Below are positions 2,785 to 16,380 of a stretch of 17,968 nt of DNA, one piece after another. This DNA is from Vicinamibacterales bacterium (lineage in GTDB: Bacteria > Acidobacteriota > Vicinamibacteria > Vicinamibacterales > CAVVIG01), in NCBI GenBank assembly GCA_035315685.1, contig DATFXR010000157.1:1-17968 (forward strand). The letters are read 5' to 3'. Within the stretch, counting starts at the first letter, position 1. Each line of letters opens with the position of its first letter. The notes under the pieces are model-generated. The model searched no databases, had not been told where the DNA came from, and was given only the letters and a program-made list of their open reading frames with translations. The position numbers and the translations under genes are program-made.

Positions 2785-3225
2785 ATGAGGCAGATGGTGC
2801 AGCTCGCGGTTGTGGTGCTGCCGATCCTCGGCACGGCGTCGTTCGCGGCACCGGCCGCGACGGACGCCGAGATTCGCGCGATCGAGAAGCAGTGGAACGA
2901 GGCGCGCGTGAAAGCCGATATCGCGACGCTCGATCGCCTGCTCGATCGCGACTGGACCGTGACCCACGGCGACGGCACGATCGACACCAAGGCGGAGTAC
3001 CTCGGCGATTTGCGGTCCGGCGCGCGGAAGTTCTTCGCGGACGTCACCGAGGATCACGTCGACGTGCGCGTCTACGGAGACACCGCCGTCGCGTCCGGCA
3101 CGAGCGATTCGAAAGTGGAATACAAGGGCAGGCCGTCCGGTGGTCCGCTCCGCTTCACGCGCGTTTACATCAAGCGCGACGGCCGCTGGCTGATGATCGT
3201 CACGCACGCCACGCGCAGGAATTAA
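2785..3225 (+). CDS. DUF4440 / SnoaL-like (NTF2-fold) domain protein, predicted secreted
   Basis: ATG 2785 is preceded by GAGGAG (2774-2779). The listed ORF 2533..3225 is an upstream extension with no RBS and Arg-rich junk. The translation MRQMVQLAVVVLPILGTASFAAPAATDAEIRAIEKQWNEARVKADIATLDRLL...VYIKRDGRWLMIVTHAT fits the DUF4440/NTF2-like pattern (IxAIEKQW...D..ALD.L..DDW....DG....K.EYL). The stop TAA 3223-3225 is contributed by the first heptamer of the downstream repeat element. Confidence 0.7.
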   Translation: MRQMVQLAVVVLPILGTASFAAPAATDAEIRAIEKQWNEARVKADIATLDRLLDRDWTVTHGDGTIDTKAEYLGDLRSGARKFFADVTEDHVDVRVYGDTAVASGTSDSKVEYKGRPSGGPLRFTRVYIKRDGRWLMIVTHATRRN

Positions 3226-3328
3226 GAATTGAGAATTAAGAATTGAGAATTCGTGCCACGCTGGCAAGAGGCGAAATGTTGCGGTCGTGATCACGAATTC
3301 TTAATTCCAAATTCATAATTCTTAATTG
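3220..3328. repeat. AT-rich palindromic element built of 7-bp units (AATTAAG/AATTGAG ... AATTCTT/AATTCCA), family 1 copy 1
   Basis: Left arm 3220-3255: AATTAAG AATTGAG AATTAAG AATTGAG AATTCGTG. Right arm 3292-3328: CACGAATTC TTAATTCC AAATTCA TAATTCT TAATTGC. The arms are about 85% reverse-complementary, with a perfect 9-bp GAATTCGTG/CACGAATTC base, around a 36-nt GC-rich spacer. Composition is under 25% GC in a ~68% GC background. It overlaps the last codon and stop of the upstream CDS. Confidence 0.85.
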
Positions 3329-3494
3329 CAGGGTTCGGCCGTGACGCCGTCCAGCGGGCGAACCACTCCCTGGTCGGCGATCGCGTGCAGAAAACGTCGC
3401 ACCGTGATGCAAGGATTGTGCGTCCAAACGTGGAGCCGACGCTATACTGGCGCCGCGAAACGCTCGTGTTTACCGCTGTTTCAAGGAGGTTCTC

Positions 3495-5082: not shown

Positions 5083-5197
5083 GCAATTAAGAATTAAAGA
5101 AGTAAGAATTAAGAATTCCTGATCAGGCTGTCGCACTGCCTGGCAGCGGAACAGCGTGACGCGCATTCTTAATTCTTAATTTGTAATTCTTAATTGC
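5083..5197. repeat. AT-rich palindromic 7-bp-unit element, family 1 copy 2 (GCAATTAAGAATT...AATTCTTAATTGC termini)
   Basis: Left arm 5083-5121: GC AATTAAG AATTAAA GAAGTAA GAATTAA GAATTCCTG. Right arm 5161-5197: GCGC ATTCTTA ATTCTTA ATTTGTA ATTCTTA ATTGC. The arms are reverse-complementary apart from a 1-nt indel and a few mismatches, around a 39-nt GC-rich spacer containing CTGCC-T-GGCAG. The terminal 13 nt match copy 1. It lies 25 nt after the msrA stop and ends 3 nt before the hrpB ATG. Confidence 0.85.
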
Positions 5198-5200
5198 CCG

Positions 5201-7570
5201 ATGCCGGTCCAAGCACTTCCAATCGACGGGTACATCGAACCAATCATCGCAGCAGTCCGCCGCTCGCGTGCGGTCGTAGTCACCGCCGCGCCGGGGGCTG
5301 GAAAAACCACGCGCGTTCCGCCGGCGCTGCTCGTTGACGGTCCGGTGATCCTCCTGCAGCCGCGGCGCGTCGCGGCGCGCGCGATCGCGGCGCGGGTTGC
5401 CGCTGAACGCGGCTGGACTCTCGGCCGCGAGGTCGGTTGGCAGGTGCGCTTCGAGCGCCGCTTCTCGGCCGAGACCGCGCTGCTCGTCGTCACCGAGGGG
5501 GTACTCACAGCGCGGCTGCAACACGATCCGCTGCTGTCGAAGTTCCGCACGGTCGTGCTCGACGAGTTTCACGAGCGAAGCGTGCACGCCGACGTGGCCC
5601 TTGCCCTCGCCCGTCAGGCCTGGCGCGCCCGTTCGACCGCTGCCGCTTCGTCCTCGGCGACGTCGACCGACGAGGACCTGCGCATCGTCGTCATGTCGGC
5701 GACGCTCGACGCGGATGCGGTGGCGTCGTTCCTCGGCGACTGCCCGATCGTCGCCGTGCCGGGCCGCACCTATCCTCTCGACGTCACCTACACGCCCGGT
5801 GTGCCGATCGGTGAAGCCGCCTCGAGTGCGCTGGCGGCGACGGGCGGGCAGGTGCTCTGCTTTCTCCCGGGCGCCGGGGAGATTCGCCGCGCGGCCGCCG
5901 ACATCGAGCCGCGCGTCGGAGCGGACGTCGAAGTAGTGCCGCTCCATGGATCGCTGGACGCCGACGCACAGGGCCTGGCGCTCCGTCCGTCATCTCGCCG
6001 CCGGATCGTCGTCGCCACGAACATCGCGGAAACGTCGCTGACGGTTCCGGGCGTCACCGCCGTCGTCGATACTGGTCTGCAGAAGATTGCGCGGTACGAC
6101 GCCGACCGCGGCATCGACAGTCTCGAGACCGAGCGTGTCACTGCAGATGCTGCCGATCAGCGCGCCGGCCGTGCCGGCCGCCTCGCACCCGGCATCGTGC
6201 GGCGGCTCTGGGATCGGCGCGATCGATTGCGGCCGCATCGCGAGCCGGACATCCGGCGAATCGATCTGGCCGGCACGGTGCTCGATGTGATTGCCTGGGG
6301 CGGCGATCCACGGACGCTCGACTGGTTCGAAGCGCCGCCGGCCGATGCGATCGCCGCTGCGCTGACGCTGCTCGGGCGGCTCGGTGTGATCGACGGACGC
6401 GGCCGGCTGACCGCGTTGGGCGAGCAGGTGCGGCGGATCCCGCTGCATCCACGACTCGCGTGCATGCTCGCCGCCGCCGGCGGCGGACCTCAGATGGCGC
6501 GGGCCTGTGCGCTTCTCTCCGAACGCCATCTGTTGCCGCCGCGCAGCGCATCTACCACATCCGATCTCCTGTCGGCGCTGGATCACTGGTCCGGGATGCC
6601 GCCGCATGTCCACCACGCGGCGGCGAGTATCCAGTCCGCGTTTCGGTCAGCCATCAGCCCTCAGCCCTCAGCCATTGACCGCGGCGAGGCGGTATTCCGC
6701 CGGGCCGTCCTGTCCGGATATCCCGACCGGGTCGCACAGCGACGCGCGCCGGGATCGCCGGAAGTGCTGCTCGCCTCCGGCACGGGCGCCACAATCGCCC
6801 GCGACAGCGGCGTCCATGACGGCGAGTTTCTCGTCGCGGTCGACGTCGCGCGACGGGCGGCGCCCGCCACGGCTCTGGTCCGCATCGCGAGCCGCGTCGA
6901 GCGCGAATGGCTCGCGCCGACCGCATCAGAGACCGTGCACCGTTTCGACGGATCGAGCGGCCGCGTGAGGGCGTTCGCCATCGAGCGCTATCTGGCGCTG
7001 GTTCTCGGCGAGCAGCCCGTCGCCGCCGACGTCGACGTTGCCGCACGGATGCTCGCTGACGCCTGGCTGGCGCGCGGACCTCGCGGCGCCGATGCGCAGT
7101 TGCTGCGCCGCCTGCGCTTCGCCGGACACGAGGCGGACGTTGCAGAATTGATCCGCACTGCCGCGTACGGTGCGCGATCGCTCGATGCGGTCACGCCTGG
7201 CGCTGCGCTCACGCCAGCCGTCCTGCGCGATCTCGACCGCGACGCGCCGGAGATGCTCGCGGTGCCCAGCGGCCGCAGCGCACGCCTCGAGTACAACGAG
7301 GATGGGACGGTGTCGGCGTCGGTGAAGCTCCAGGAACTGTTCGGTCTCGCCGACTCACCGCGAATCGGGCGCCGCCGCGAGCCTGTTGTCCTCGCACTGC
7401 TCGCGCCGAACGGCCGTCCCGTCCAGATCACGCGCGACCTGCGCAGCTTCTGGAACAACACGTATCCGGAAGTACGAAAGGAGCTGCGCGGCCGCTACCC
7501 GAAGCACCCGTGGCCCGAGGATCCGTGGAGCGCACAGCCGACGCATCGGACTGTGCGCCGGAAGCATTGA
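5201..7570 (+). CDS. hrpB: ATP-dependent RNA helicase HrpB (DEAH-box family)
   Basis: 789 aa. Walker A APGAGKTT, DEFHERS (DEAH-box variant), SATLD, FLPGAGEI, TNIAETSLTV.GV..VVD.G and QRAGRAGR are all present, followed by an HrpB-type C-terminal domain (...RYPKHPWPEDPW). The N-terminus is colinear with E. coli HrpB. Confidence 0.92.
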   Translation: MPVQALPIDGYIEPIIAAVRRSRAVVVTAAPGAGKTTRVPPALLVDGPVILLQPRRVAARAIAARVAAERGWTLGREVGWQVRFERRFSAETALLVVTEGVLTARLQHDPLLSKFRTVVLDEFHERSVHADVALALARQAWRARSTAAASSSATSTDEDLRIVVMSATLDADAVASFLGDCPIVAVPGRTYPLDVTYTPGVPIGEAASSALAATGGQVLCFLPGAGEIRRAAADIEPRVGADVEVVPLHGSLDADAQGLALRPSSRRRIVVATNIAETSLTVPGVTAVVDTGLQKIARYDADRGIDSLETERVTADAADQRAGRAGRLAPGIVRRLWDRRDRLRPHREPDIRRIDLAGTVLDVIAWGGDPRTLDWFEAPPADAIAAALTLLGRLGVIDGRGRLTALGEQVRRIPLHPRLACMLAAAGGGPQMARACALLSERHLLPPRSASTTSDLLSALDHWSGMPPHVHHAAASIQSAFRSAISPQPSAIDRGEAVFRRAVLSGYPDRVAQRRAPGSPEVLLASGTGATIARDSGVHDGEFLVAVDVARRAAPATALVRIASRVEREWLAPTASETVHRFDGSSGRVRAFAIERYLALVLGEQPVAADVDVAARMLADAWLARGPRGADAQLLRRLRFAGHEADVAELIRTAAYGARSLDAVTPGAALTPAVLRDLDRDAPEMLAVPSGRSARLEYNEDGTVSASVKLQELFGLADSPRIGRRREPVVLALLAPNGRPVQITRDLRSFWNNTYPEVRKELRGRYPKHPWPEDPWSAQPTHRTVRRKH
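6648..6675 (+). repeat. intragenic run of four tandem heptamers CAGCCAT CAGCCCT CAGCCCT CAGCCAT inside hrpB (encodes SAISPQPSAI)
   Basis: Direct 7-bp tandem repeats read in the sequence. The unit is the reverse complement of the ATGGCTG unit used by the intergenic elements at 11904-11940 and 16280-16380. It lies in the variable linker between the helicase core and the HrpB C-terminal domain, and the frame is preserved. Confidence 0.7.
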
Positions 7571-7574
7571 CTGG

Positions 7575-7602
7575 GCGTAGCACGAAGGCTTCAGCCGAGC
7601 GA
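7575..7602 (+). repeat. 28-nt intergenic motif GCGTAGCACGAAGGCTTCAGCCGAGCGA (copy 2 of 2)
   Basis: It sits in the 43-nt gap between convergent hrpB (stop 7570) and the membrane protein (stop 7614). Within that gap it is followed by hairpin GAGCG-ACGGC-CGCTC (7598-7612). GCGTAGC (7575-7581) is complementary to GCTACG at 7626-7631, inside the 3' end of the minus-strand CDS. Confidence 0.6.
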
Positions 7603-7613
7603 CGGCCGCTCGC

Positions 7614-8366
7614 CTAAAGGCGTCGCGCTACGTCAGGAGCATCGAGCGCTCCAAGCAGCGGCTGACCGGCGCGGGCAGCGTAGAAACCGAACGCGGCCGA
7701 GGCCAGGACGAGCGCGATCGAGAGATTGCCGGGCAGGGCCGCCCAGCTCGCGGCATGCGGCAGGATCGGTGCGACCGTCACGATGTTGTCCACGATGAGC
7801 ATCACCGCCGTCACCAGCAGGCCGAACCTGAAGATCGCCAGGGTGATGATGCCGATCGCCGTGAGCTGGCCGACCACGTAGAGCGACAACTCCTGACCGA
7901 ACGGGATGTTGCTCGTCACCGCAGCGGTGACGACGGTCATCCCGACCGCGACCGCGATCCACGTCCGCCTCACGATCAGGCGCAGGCCGACGAAGGTCAT
8001 CGTGATGAGCAGCGCGGTCTGAACGCTGCTGTAGAACTGGCCGGCCCAGGCCAGGATGAGCGAACCTGCGCCGCTCAGCACGCGCACGTCGCCATCCAGA
8101 AACGGCAGCGCGGGCGCGCGTCCGATCTGGTACGGCATCGCACCGCGGAACCCGTCGTTGACGATCAGCGCGGCTCCGAGCGCGACGCCGATCAGGATCT
8201 CGCGGCCGATTCGCGGGTCGCGGACGTGTCCGGCAAACAGCCGCGTCCATCCGAGCAGGCCGTCGGGCCAGAACCGCCGGCCATATGGCTCGAGCGCGAC
8301 GTAGAGCACCCACAACAGCGCGACTTGAAACAGCATGTTGCCGCAGACGCGGAAGAAGCTGTTCAC
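7614..8366 (-). CDS. polytopic membrane protein, stand-alone paralog of the C-terminal transmembrane domain of the upstream Ser/Thr kinase
   Basis: 250 aa from GTG 8366 (ATG alternative at 8336), hydrophobic throughout. It aligns clearly to kinase residues ~640-882: LYVALEPYGRRFWPDGLLGWTRLFAGHVRDPRIGREILIGVALG vs IYAALEPYGRRFWPEMLLGWSRLLSGRIRDPRVGRDVLLGVTFG, and C-termini FGFYAARAGQPLLG vs FGFYASRAGEPLFG. The frame upstream of 8366 hits a stop at 8424 and shows no kinase homology, so this is a separate gene, not a frameshifted continuation. Confidence 0.75.
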   Translation of the reverse strand: MNSFFRVCGNMLFQVALLWVLYVALEPYGRRFWPDGLLGWTRLFAGHVRDPRIGREILIGVALGAALIVNDGFRGAMPYQIGRAPALPFLDGDVRVLSGAGSLILAWAGQFYSSVQTALLITMTFVGLRLIVRRTWIAVAVGMTVVTAAVTSNIPFGQELSLYVVGQLTAIGIITLAIFRFGLLVTAVMLIVDNIVTVAPILPHAASWAALPGNLSIALVLASAAFGFYAARAGQPLLGALDAPDVARRL

Positions 8367-11903: not shown

Positions 11904-11940
11904 GATGGCTGATGGCTGATGGCATATGGTTAATGGTCAT
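11904..11940. repeat. tandem heptamer array GATGGCT GATGGCT GATGGCA TATGGTT AATGGTC, separating the ADOP remnant from the CRTAC1 fragment
   Basis: It shares an identical 19-mer ATGGCTGATGGCTGATGGC with the left arm of the element at 16280-16380. It contains the TAA (11931-11933) that closes the upstream side of the CRTAC1 reading frame. A degenerate ATGG-rich stretch (GATGGGACTGATGGGCCCATAGGGTGGCTGGGGC, 11767-11800) lies upstream of the ADOP remnant. Confidence 0.75.
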
Positions 11941-12794: not shown

Positions 12795-12859
12795 CTGGGG
12801 ACCGGGGACTGGGGCTGGGGCTGGGGCTGGGGTTGGGAGCTGGAGGCTGGGACTAGCTG
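12795..12859. repeat. G-rich tandem array CTGGGGA CCGGGGA (CTGGGG)x4 TTGGGAG CTGGAGG CTGGGAC; left arm of an imperfect inverted pair whose right arm is 12957-12986
   Basis: It starts at the base after the CRTAC1 stop. GGAGCTGGAGGCTGGGAC (12834-12851) is approximately complementary to GGCCCCCAGCTTCCAGCGC (12957-12975). Confidence 0.6.
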
Positions 12860-12870
12860 TCGTTACACCG

Positions 12871-12893
12871 GTAGTGTCCGGCTTGAGCCGGAC
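12871..12893 (+). other. second copy of hairpin motif GTAGTGTCCGGCTT-GAG-CCGGAC (perfect 8-bp stem GTCCGGCT/AGCCGGAC)
   Basis: 21 of 23 nt identical to 4312-4334 (GTAGTGTCCGGCTTCACCCGGAC). It lies in the spacer between the CTGGGG/CCCCAG arms. Confidence 0.5.
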
Positions 12894-12913
12894 GGTCGGC
12901 GAAGCTGCGGTTC

Positions 12914-12953
12914 GAAAATCCCGCGGTCTCTGCGTGTTTCCGCGGTTTGCGTT
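12914..12953. terminator. candidate bidirectional intrinsic terminator: GAAAATC - CCGCGG-N13-CCGCGG - TTTGCGTT between convergent genes
   Basis: A 6-bp GC stem (CCGCGG 12921-12926 / 12940-12945) is flanked by an A-run upstream and a T-run downstream. A U-rich tail therefore follows the hairpin on either transcript (UUUGCGUU on +, GAUUUUC on -). Confidence 0.4.
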
Positions 12954-12956
12954 CCC

Positions 12957-12986
12957 GGCCCCCAGCTTCCAGCGCCCAGCCCCGCG
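12957..12986. repeat. C-rich right arm GGCCCCCAGCTTCCAGCGCCCAGCCCCGCG, complementary to the CTGGGG array
   Basis: Reverse complement CGCGGGGCTGGGCGCTGGAAGCTGGGGGCC resembles GGGGCTGGGG...GGAGCTGGAGGCTGGG in the left arm. It ends 4 nt before the stop of the sigma-54 activator CDS (12991). Confidence 0.5.
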
Positions 12987-12990
12987 CCGA

Positions 12991-16278: not shown

Positions 16279-16279
16279 G

Positions 16280-16380
16280 ACATGGCTGATGGCTGATGGC
16301 TCATGGCAATGGCTGATGGTTGAAGCGTTCAGCCATCGACCCTAGCCATTAGCCATTAGCCATTAGCCATTAGCCATGTC
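16280..16380. repeat. palindromic element of 7-bp units: (ATGGCTG)-type left arm / (AGCCATT)x4 right arm, family 2
   Basis: Left arm 16280-16320: ACATGGCT GATGGCT GATGGCT CATGGCA ATGGCT GATGG. Right arm 16328-16380: TTCAGCCATCGACCCT AGCCATT AGCCATT AGCCATT AGCCATT AGCCATG TC. It fills exactly the gap between convergent stops (16278 and 16385). The mismatches between arms are systematically G (left) opposite T (right), which pair as G-U in the + strand RNA but as C/A in the - strand RNA. Confidence 0.85.

Follow-up and report, generated by a model that had tools for sequence, protein, structure and literature searches.

The locus described here raises the question of how a gene in GC-rich DNA comes to end in an AT-rich palindrome assembled from 7-bp units, and what such a palindrome is. 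The stretch analyzed, referred to below as the window, comprises 17,968 nucleotides from the soil metagenome-assembled genome of a Vicinamibacterales bacterium (Acidobacteriota; assembly GCA_035315685.1, contig DATFXR010000157.1). The palindrome (copy 1, positions 3220-3328) overlaps the stop codon of a DUF4440/SnoaL-like gene. Copy 1 is a 109-bp element in which a GC-rich centre separates two inverted runs of five AATT at 7-base spacing. Among the heptanucleotide tandem arrays of the long simple sequence repeat (LSSR) or short tandemly repeated repetitive (STRR) type, it represents a special form of constrained length. That heptanucleotide tandem arrays, inverted pairs included, are a known phenomenon had been missed in the preliminary description of this DNA. 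The gene and the parts of the element are the following.

2785..3225, plus strand: DUF4440/SnoaL-like gene (Pfam PF14534, E = 6e-23)
3220..3251, plus strand: left arm, AATT-AAG-AATT-GAG-AATT-AAG-AATT-GAG-AATT, five AATT at 7-nt spacing, 19% GC
3252..3295, plus strand: GC-rich core, 61% GC, with a CGTG start and a CACG end that extend the stem
3296..3327, plus strand: right arm, AATT-CTT-AATT-CCA-AATT-CAT-AATT-CTT-AATT, followed by the outer GC cap at 3328-3329

Strictly counted, each arm consists of four full heptads and a terminal AATT. Tandem Repeats Finder reported period 7 with 4.6-4.7 copies for each arm, and the pattern AATTNNNAATTNNNAATT (at most one mismatch) matched the window 10 times versus 0.00 times in 200 shuffles, so that the five phased AATT per arm are real. 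The 36-nt arms 3220-3255 and 3292-3327 were reverse-complementary at 31 of 36 positions (86%) across a 36-nt spacer, in agreement with the earlier estimate of about 85%. As had also been described, the first heptad supplies the last codon AAT (3220-3222) and the stop codon TAA (3223-3225) of the DUF4440 gene. A GC content below 25% had been ascribed to the element. This held for the arms (16-19% in the 32-nt arrays, 22-25% in the 36-nt arms) and not for the whole element, which has 35.8% GC in a window of 66.9%. The outer caps read GG/GC in copy 1 and GC/GC in copy 2 (see below). The core is bounded by the motif GAATTCGTG...CACGAATTC, which is that of the family, and places a GC-rich stem beside the AAUUCUUAAUU arm. 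Predicted RNA folds gave z = -6.4 to -6.6, with a long hairpin on either strand. Copy 1 is thus a genuine hairpin-forming element, far beyond chance. It is not an assembly artefact, because the same locus including the element is present in four independent soil-metagenome assemblies. The statement that it is not a REP, BOX, MIRU or CRISPR repeat stood, and in addition an Rfam covariance-model search, even at E <= 1, matched neither 3220-3328 nor 5083-5197. In a close strain (L002 1924-2668) the element is kept with 5 substitutions; homology to the window is lost about 70 nt beyond it, so the rearrangement history differs between the strains.

Membership in a repeat family, proposed previously, was borne out within the window itself, which holds at least two copies.

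5083..5197: copy 2, AATT family; GC cap, left arm 5085-5117, 47-nt core 5118-5164, right arm 5165-5195, GC cap

Copy 2 lies between msrA and hrpB and stops 3 nt short of the hrpB start codon at 5201. For comparison we used L118, a syntenic contig from another Vicinamibacterales metagenome-assembled genome (MAG), and L119-L150, 32 metagenome loci retrieved via the VOC protein encoded downstream of DUF4440. The msrA-hrpB junction of the window has 5+5 units around its 47-nt core. In L118 it carries a perfect 11-bp mini-hairpin, CAATTGAGAAT/ATTCTCAATTG, followed by CCCG ATG as in the window. L119 has AATTAAG arms around a 77-nt core that holds two GTAG-type GC palindromes, and in L121 the units of both arms have become AATTTGG/CCAAATT. 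The more distant L126, L133, and L134 have hairpins of unrelated CGCAGAG/CTCTGCG units in the same place, abutting the hrpB start. In all, 6 of 7 msrA-hrpB junctions folded as hairpins. The core of copy 2 matched that of L121 when reversed (z = 5.6) and not in forward orientation (z = 1.9), which is the outcome that recombination between inverted arms gives. Copy 2 is ancestral at its locus, with relatives differing in unit number, unit sequence, core, and core orientation. The hairpin at this junction has been kept although its sequence was replaced, and the elements persist through speciation at a given locus. L122, L123, L125, and L129 have a second, secreted msrA-like open reading frame (ORF) of about 620-700 nt between msrA and hrpB, and CTCTGCG-type units extend into its signal-peptide region.

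The preliminary description had taken the overlap with the stop codon to suggest insertion into, or capture of, the DUF4440 terminus. This did not hold. The L118 orthologue, with 146 amino acids like that of the window, ends AGT TAG and is followed only by AATTGC. In L124 the orthologue ends AAT TGA G, i.e. in a single AATTGAG, and more distant orthologues end one codon earlier. Because orthologues without the element stop at the same codon, the element did not create the end of the DUF4440 gene.

On the other side of copy 1 the alignments show a deletion. In most relatives about 3 kb separates DUF4440 from the VOC gene, including a minus-strand gene that diverges from VOC, and the window retains a remnant of that arrangement.

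3330..3494: relic 5' end of the divergent minus-strand gene (mutated start codon), VOC upstream region and its Shine-Dalgarno sequence, from alignments with L119, L121, and L129

Window positions 3375-3494 are homologous to the VOC upstream region and comprise the first codons of the divergent gene (ATG mutated) and GGATTGTGCGTCCAAAC...GACGCTATACTG. Since this homology includes the gene relic, copy 1 sits precisely at the junction of an approximately 3-kb deletion, where it precedes the conserved VOC upstream region. In L118 the VOC gene begins 37 nt after the DUF4440 stop. The L118 sequence AGTTAGAATTGC may be either a collapsed palindrome (one heptad and the terminal AATTGC) or a site that has been empty from the start. 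The motif GGATTGTGCGTCCAAAC-N-GACGCTATACTG (window 3396-3450) is strongly conserved before the VOC/glyoxalase gene in all relatives (L119, L121, L126, L129, L135, and L143) and is probably a promoter plus operator; the divergent gene beside it has been lost in the window.

The family extends well beyond this order. The strict AATT-heptad pattern AATTNNNAATTNNNAATTCTTAATTGC, with 21 specified bases, was searched in a species-representative genome collection, as the AATT pattern alone. More than 113 loci in about 17 phyla were found among the matches listed; by our own estimate, 21 specified bases give fewer than about one chance match at uniform base composition. The phyla among the matches listed include Bacteroidota, Acidobacteriota (three orders), Chloroflexota, Ignavibacteriota, Nitrospirota, Desulfobacterota, Planctomycetota, Verrucomicrobiota, Calditrichota, Elusimicrobiota, Patescibacteria, Bacillota, Actinomycetota, Cyanobacteriota, Gammaproteobacteria, and others. 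Chitinophaga, Emticicia, Hymenobacter, Pinibacter, Geminisphaera, Chamaesiphon, and Anaerobacillus are cultured carriers among them, and one Vicinamibacterales MAG contains at least 7 strict-pattern loci. A phage origin was considered and dropped, the strict pattern occurring in only 5 viral contigs versus 1 for a permuted control.

The arrays have a preferred length. Five AATT (32 nt) were counted in 100 of 215 arrays and four in 82, and Tandem Repeats Finder gave 4.2-5.0 copies for 117 of 232 AATT arrays; unrelated heptads had the same mode, more weakly. Among inverted pairs 5+5 was the most frequent combination. Sixteen Acidobacterial arms yielded the consensus GCAATTAAGAATTnnGAATTnnGAATTAAGAATTCGTG, a 39-nt arm of the form GC-AATTAAG-AATTnnG-AATTnnG-AATTAAG-AATT-CGTG, with conserved outer spacers (the first and the last) and two variable inner ones. 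This trend was also seen in low-GC genomes; the conservation of spacer 1 is partly fixed by the search pattern. The base preceding the first AATT was C in 39 of 64 arms that had not been selected by the pattern, and a G before that C was not general. The commonest form is the single array, not the inverted pair. Pairs occur in two arrangements, type A with the AAG arm first and the caps outward, as in copy 1, and type B with the CTT arm first and the caps facing the loop, found mainly in Chloroflexia. Cores measured 25-77 nt and differed in sequence, sharing only the boundary motifs, and an irregular AAGT middle unit recurred at different loci. Two identical copies in L018 lie within a segmental duplication that takes in the flanks. 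At variable positions, arms of the same element matched each other at 72.4%, versus 63.5 +/- 1.7% between elements (0 of 2000 permutations reached the observed value). Shared ancestry within genomes or arm-to-arm conversion could suffice to explain this, without selection for pairing.

The AATT arrays thus combine features of the LSSR/STRR class, namely period-7 tandem units, an intergenic position near ORF ends, and presence at the same locus in relatives with variation, with others that are foreign to it. Simple repeats have a homogeneous interior, degenerate edges, and open-ended lengths, none of which the AATT arrays display; their conserved ends and length mode are unlike a plain slippage product.

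The position of the arrays relative to genes was evaluated with a crude, home-made gene caller based on ORFs and third-position GC content, by which DUF4440 itself was missed. Where an array started between -25 and +10 nt from the upstream stop codon, AAG was on the sense strand in 68 cases versus 19 (p = 1e-7), and for single arrays alone the ratio was 51 versus 8. The stop lay inside the first few bases of the array in 21 cases, most simply explained by the TAA of the first heptad as in copy 1, and deeper within it in 14 further cases. The elements occupy short spacers and usually leave 20 nt or less on either side; three hairpins of the window each fill an intergenic spacer. Inverted pairs lay between co-directional genes in 35 of 43 scorable cases, no different from the gene-pair background, and the family-wide context count gave no enrichment between convergent genes.

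Two further elements of the window have the layout of copies 1 and 2 with other units.

16279..16380: inverted arrays, ATGGCTG x6, 19-nt loop, TAGCCAT x5; fold z = -11.9 on the plus strand
12795..12990: CTGGGG(A) array 12795-12851 and inverted CCCAG-type array 12961-12988, core of about 110 nt

The former fills the gap between the SPFH and amidohydrolase genes, which are convergent, and its only Rfam matches at E <= 1, which were the only ones obtained, were meaningless miRNA-like ones. The latter fills the convergent spacer from an FG-GAP gene to a sigma-54 activator gene; its CTGGGG(A) unit is the reverse complement of CCCCAGT, the cyanobacterial STRR1 unit. In an unbiased 213-kb sample from Vicinamibacterales-like relatives many inverted array pairs with diverse units were present, and among tandem arrays in all fetched loci period 7 accounted for 387 of 646, with dozens of other units in addition. 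It is a habit of this genome to have intergenic spacers made of two inverted tandem arrays of short units, usually of 7 nt. Because the four elements of the window are alike in layout, copy 1 is one case of this genome-wide habit.

What such elements do is the more difficult part of the question. Our tentative preference, held with slightly less than even confidence, is for a dispersed heptad-array palindrome that is maintained and remodelled at the DNA level and that, when transcribed, acts as an intercistronic or 3'-end RNA hairpin; we infer the functional half of this reading. A family member consists of a pair of inverted 32-nt modules with a variable GC-rich core between them. The turnover of unit number, units, core, and orientation implies replication slippage, recombination or conversion between the arms, and palindrome-associated deletion as the likely processes at the DNA level. 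Copy 1 would be transcribed with the fmdA-DUF4440 message and its transcript would fold into a stem of about 45 bp, in which an A-rich 5' arm and a U-rich 3' arm enclose a GC-rich apical stem-loop. Such a hairpin might serve as a partial terminator or attenuator, as a barrier to 3' exonucleases, or as a processing site for a double-strand-specific RNase. In this way copy 1 would separate DUF4440 from the VOC promoter region, and copy 2 would set the expression of hrpB relative to msrA. A role at the RNA level is suggested by the stop-anchored strand bias, by retention of the hairpin despite sequence replacement, and by the type A layout, which resembles a terminator in that a GC hairpin core stands between an A-rich and a U-rich arm; the core of L037 holds a canonical terminator. 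The absence of canonical terminators above chance elsewhere in the window, where the consensus scan for terminators and promoters gave totals at chance level, also speaks for such a role.

Several results weigh against this preference. The consensus terminator and promoter scan made no call at the elements. The inside-out type B, with its U-rich arm first, counts against a simple terminator. Between co-directional genes, most elements are at most 20 nt away from the following start codon. Of 13 spacers in the S10/spc ribosomal-protein operon cluster (L22-S3-L16-L29-S17-L14-L24-L5-S14-S8-...) of a Chloroflexia MAG (DASVQO010000194, contiguous loci L078 and L006), 10 are taken up by heptad hairpins of several unit types, with a Shine-Dalgarno sequence after each hairpin; therefore, they cannot be efficient terminators in general. 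Sense and antisense folds differed neither in stability nor in G-U pairs (33 versus 38 among 72 orientable hairpins), and this lack of a sense-strand excess, obtained with crude gene calls, gives no support for selection on the sense RNA fold. Finally, the inner spacers vary more than the outer ones, which is the opposite of what homogenization by slippage predicts and suggests a constraint outside the proposed model.

The elements could also be a functionless by-product, in which arrays arise by polymerase slippage and their inverted partners by fold-back or template-switch errors, and both are tolerated between genes. We regard this as unlikely, though less so than the other alternatives. 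As summarised by MacGregor (2015, PMC4679880), Mrazek (2007) found heptanucleotide units to be the commonest prokaryotic long simple sequence repeats, for which slippage was proposed. Orthologous copies indeed differ in unit number and sequence, there is no G-U strand asymmetry, and the Xanthomonas arrays discussed below have no function found despite experiments. Against a mere by-product stand the sharp length mode at five AATT in place of a decaying distribution, the outer units being conserved more than the inner, the orientation bias to the upstream gene (51 versus 8 for single arrays), and the hairpin retained at one junction across relatives while its sequence was replaced. The same fixed length, together with the conserved end units and the conserved C/GC cap, would be accounted for if the phased AATT heptads were tandem sites for a putative protein, with the number of five set by how large the complex is. 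Candidates at the DNA level are nucleoid proteins and ribbon-helix-helix proteins like those that recognise heptad iterons; at the RNA level they are cold-shock-domain proteins (with seven nucleotide subsites) and ribosomal protein S1. The omega repressor is known to bind heptad iterons. Known heptad repeats such as TTTTGAT in the ctx promoter also count for such a platform, as do the occurrence of one heptad in about 17 phyla among the matches listed and the orientation relative to the upstream gene. S1, Csp, and CsrA have been proposed to bind TAACTGA heptamer arrays (MacGregor 2015, PMC4679880). Hairpins of unrelated units (ATGGCTG, CTCTGCG, CTGGGG) hold equivalent positions, however, so that either a non-specific binder or a whole set of binders would be needed. 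We consider a dedicated binding site decidedly unlikely.

The suggestion of a miniature inverted-repeat transposable element (MITE), made in the preliminary description, fared no better. Here the 36-39-nt arms would be terminal inverted repeats bound by a transposase, and the targets possibly AATT or GCAATTGC-like. Conserved 39-nt inverted termini around a variable middle, several copies per genome (at least 7 in one Vicinamibacterales MAG), boundary motifs common to cores of different loci, the irregular AAGT middle unit at different loci, a GCAGG on both sides of copy 1 (of copy 1 alone), and the L118 site reading only ...TAG AATTGC are all as expected of such an element. Yet 11 inspected elements had no consistent target-site duplication, only a palindromic GC recurring. 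The cores vary in length (25-77 nt) and sequence, so that neither full-length homology nor recent near-identical copies were seen. Copy 2 is ancestral, and relatives have a variant of it at this junction, unit number and sequence having changed in place. Single arrays are commoner than pairs, both inside-out arrangements occur, no transposase gene lies within the window, and viral contigs gave only 5 matches. Despite its MITE-like terminal inverted repeats (86% complementary), the element is therefore probably not a MITE, an origin that we hold to be very unlikely. Two other sets of candidates were rejected. A sigma-70 promoter in the array (TTAAGA, 17 bp, AAGAAT) reaches a score of just 8/12 and would be unlike the promoters of Bacteroidota. 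We also set aside DNA uptake sequences, iterons, CRISPR, and attC, which do not agree with the spread of the family across phyla or with its anatomy.

Besides the hairpin reading that we prefer, a further and more speculative proposal concerns the module rather than the pair. The 32-nt module C/GC-(AATTNNG)4-AATT is conceivably a discrete, putative cis-acting signal used across bacteria and not a simple repeat, which we consider rather unlikely. The consensus AATTAAG reads UAAG on one strand and UAAU on the other; a run of it has stops in all six frames and no ATG, GTG, or TTG. Both arms in the window are degenerate: only the plus strand of the left arm has stops in all three frames, and a few TTG/ATG occur. 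Such a module could be readable by a universal component, for instance a ribosome that is terminating or scanning, S1, a cold-shock protein, or RNase E (GA|AUU is present in every unit). If so, it would, single or paired, insulate or process neighboring cistrons, and the fact that unrelated heptads prefer about 4-5 units both here and in Xanthomonas would point to a common reader of heptad arrays.

The closest relatives of the element in the literature are other heptanucleotide arrays. Rehm et al. (2015, PMC4692102) described 186 Xanthomonas GGGAATC arrays with a preferred number of four units and about 70 convergent inverted pairs, without finding a function. The AATT arrays resemble them in their 7-nt tandem units, the strongly intergenic position near ORF ends, the preferred size (about four units there), and loci that are shared by related species with variation in length and sequence; about 40% of the Xanthomonas arrays are convergent inverted pairs, stem-loop capable like copy 1. 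Unlike GGGAATC, AATTAAG is AT-rich in a 67% GC genome and cannot form G-quadruplexes, and the AATT arms have conserved end units, a conserved boundary to the GC-rich core, and one unit across many phyla. MacGregor (2015, PMC4679880) reported TAACTGA arrays adjoining coding regions in Beggiatoaceae, Cyanobacteria, and Bacteroidetes. These are likewise heptamers (2-6 copies) of patchy occurrence across phyla, in short spacers by coding regions and, as here, with stop codons in the unit; a post-transcriptional role was proposed for them. The TAACTGA arrays, however, are almost always direct (one inverted among 170) and stand just upstream of start codons, whereas AATT arrays frequently occur as inverted pairs and have their anchor point at stop codons. 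With the long simple sequence repeats of 5-11-nt units (Mrazek 2007, in the summary cited above) and the STRR heptamers of Calothrix, the studied loci share the dominance of period 7; the AATT arrays differ in their length mode and conserved ends, which is not simple-repeat behavior.

Outside the heptanucleotide arrays, the REP/REPIN/BIME elements are similar in being inverted doublets of about 100 bp with long hairpins right after stop codons and many copies per genome. The AATT arm, unlike theirs, consists of tandem AATTNNN units and has neither an imperfect palindrome nor a GTAG or CGTC head, and genuine GTAG-type palindromes exist separately in these genomes (window 7577-7631, L119 core). 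Like bidirectional intrinsic terminators, type A elements have, on either strand, an A-rich tract before and a U-rich tract after a GC-rich stem-loop. They are unlike them in that the U-rich arm is made of CUUAAUU repeats and is no U-tract, no scan call was made, most lie between co-directional genes, and the arrangement with the U-rich arm first also exists. A literature search for literal AATTAAG arrays gave one irrelevant match, and a keyword search returned only general heptamer papers, with no relevant text in Huang and Mrazek (2014); no account of the AATT-phased module turned up. As far as the searchable literature goes, the five-unit length of the AATT-phased module, its anchoring at stop codons, and its spread across phyla are new.

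Heptanucleotide arrays are the commonest long simple repeats of bacteria, and neither function nor origin has been established for them. The present locus combines an AT-rich, length-constrained form found in about 17 phyla with strand-specific stop anchoring and with a hairpin kept while its sequence is replaced. Should the elements influence how mRNAs end, how they are processed, or how their translation is coupled, they would amount to a widespread and overlooked layer of operon organization. They also mark points of rearrangement, as copy 1 does at its deletion junction, and the stop codons that they supply can lead gene callers astray. The cultured carriers Chitinophaga, Emticicia, Hymenobacter, Pinibacter, and Geminisphaera make the question testable.

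Further repeats were seen in the window and in the fetched loci. A lone GATGGCT x3 at window positions 11904-11923, of the same unit family as the 16279-16380 hairpin, lies in the 309-nt spacer upstream of the FG-GAP gene. Within the hrpB coding region a heptad array, TCAGCCA x4 (6647-6675), encodes an in-frame variable linker (..SAISPQPSAID..). The hrpB orthologues of L122 and L125 have arrays of 4.6 and 6.3 copies at this position, respectively, and L126 and L143 have AATCCGC/ATTGCGG arrays within hrpB. Between hrpB and the next gene, window positions 7577-7631 form a GC-rich palindrome bounded by GTAG...CTAC, and a single related copy at 1706-1733 shares GAAG(G)CTTCAGCCGAGCGA with it. Both look like GTAG-tagged REP elements, and a similar doublet is found in the heptad-hairpin core of L119. 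In an Acidobacteria MAG (L039 757-1086) an inverted array of 8-nt units, TTGAGGAT x19 facing AAATCCTC x12, has a predicted fold of -170 kcal/mol. In an Ignavibacteriaceae MAG (L014 6688-7853) four tandem units of about 230-680 bp each open with an AATTAAG array, after which one conserved, structured-looking sequence (..cccagtaaggttgttgagtatcccgac..tcgggagtatcgaaacaacc..) recurs; this series may be an array of small RNA genes.

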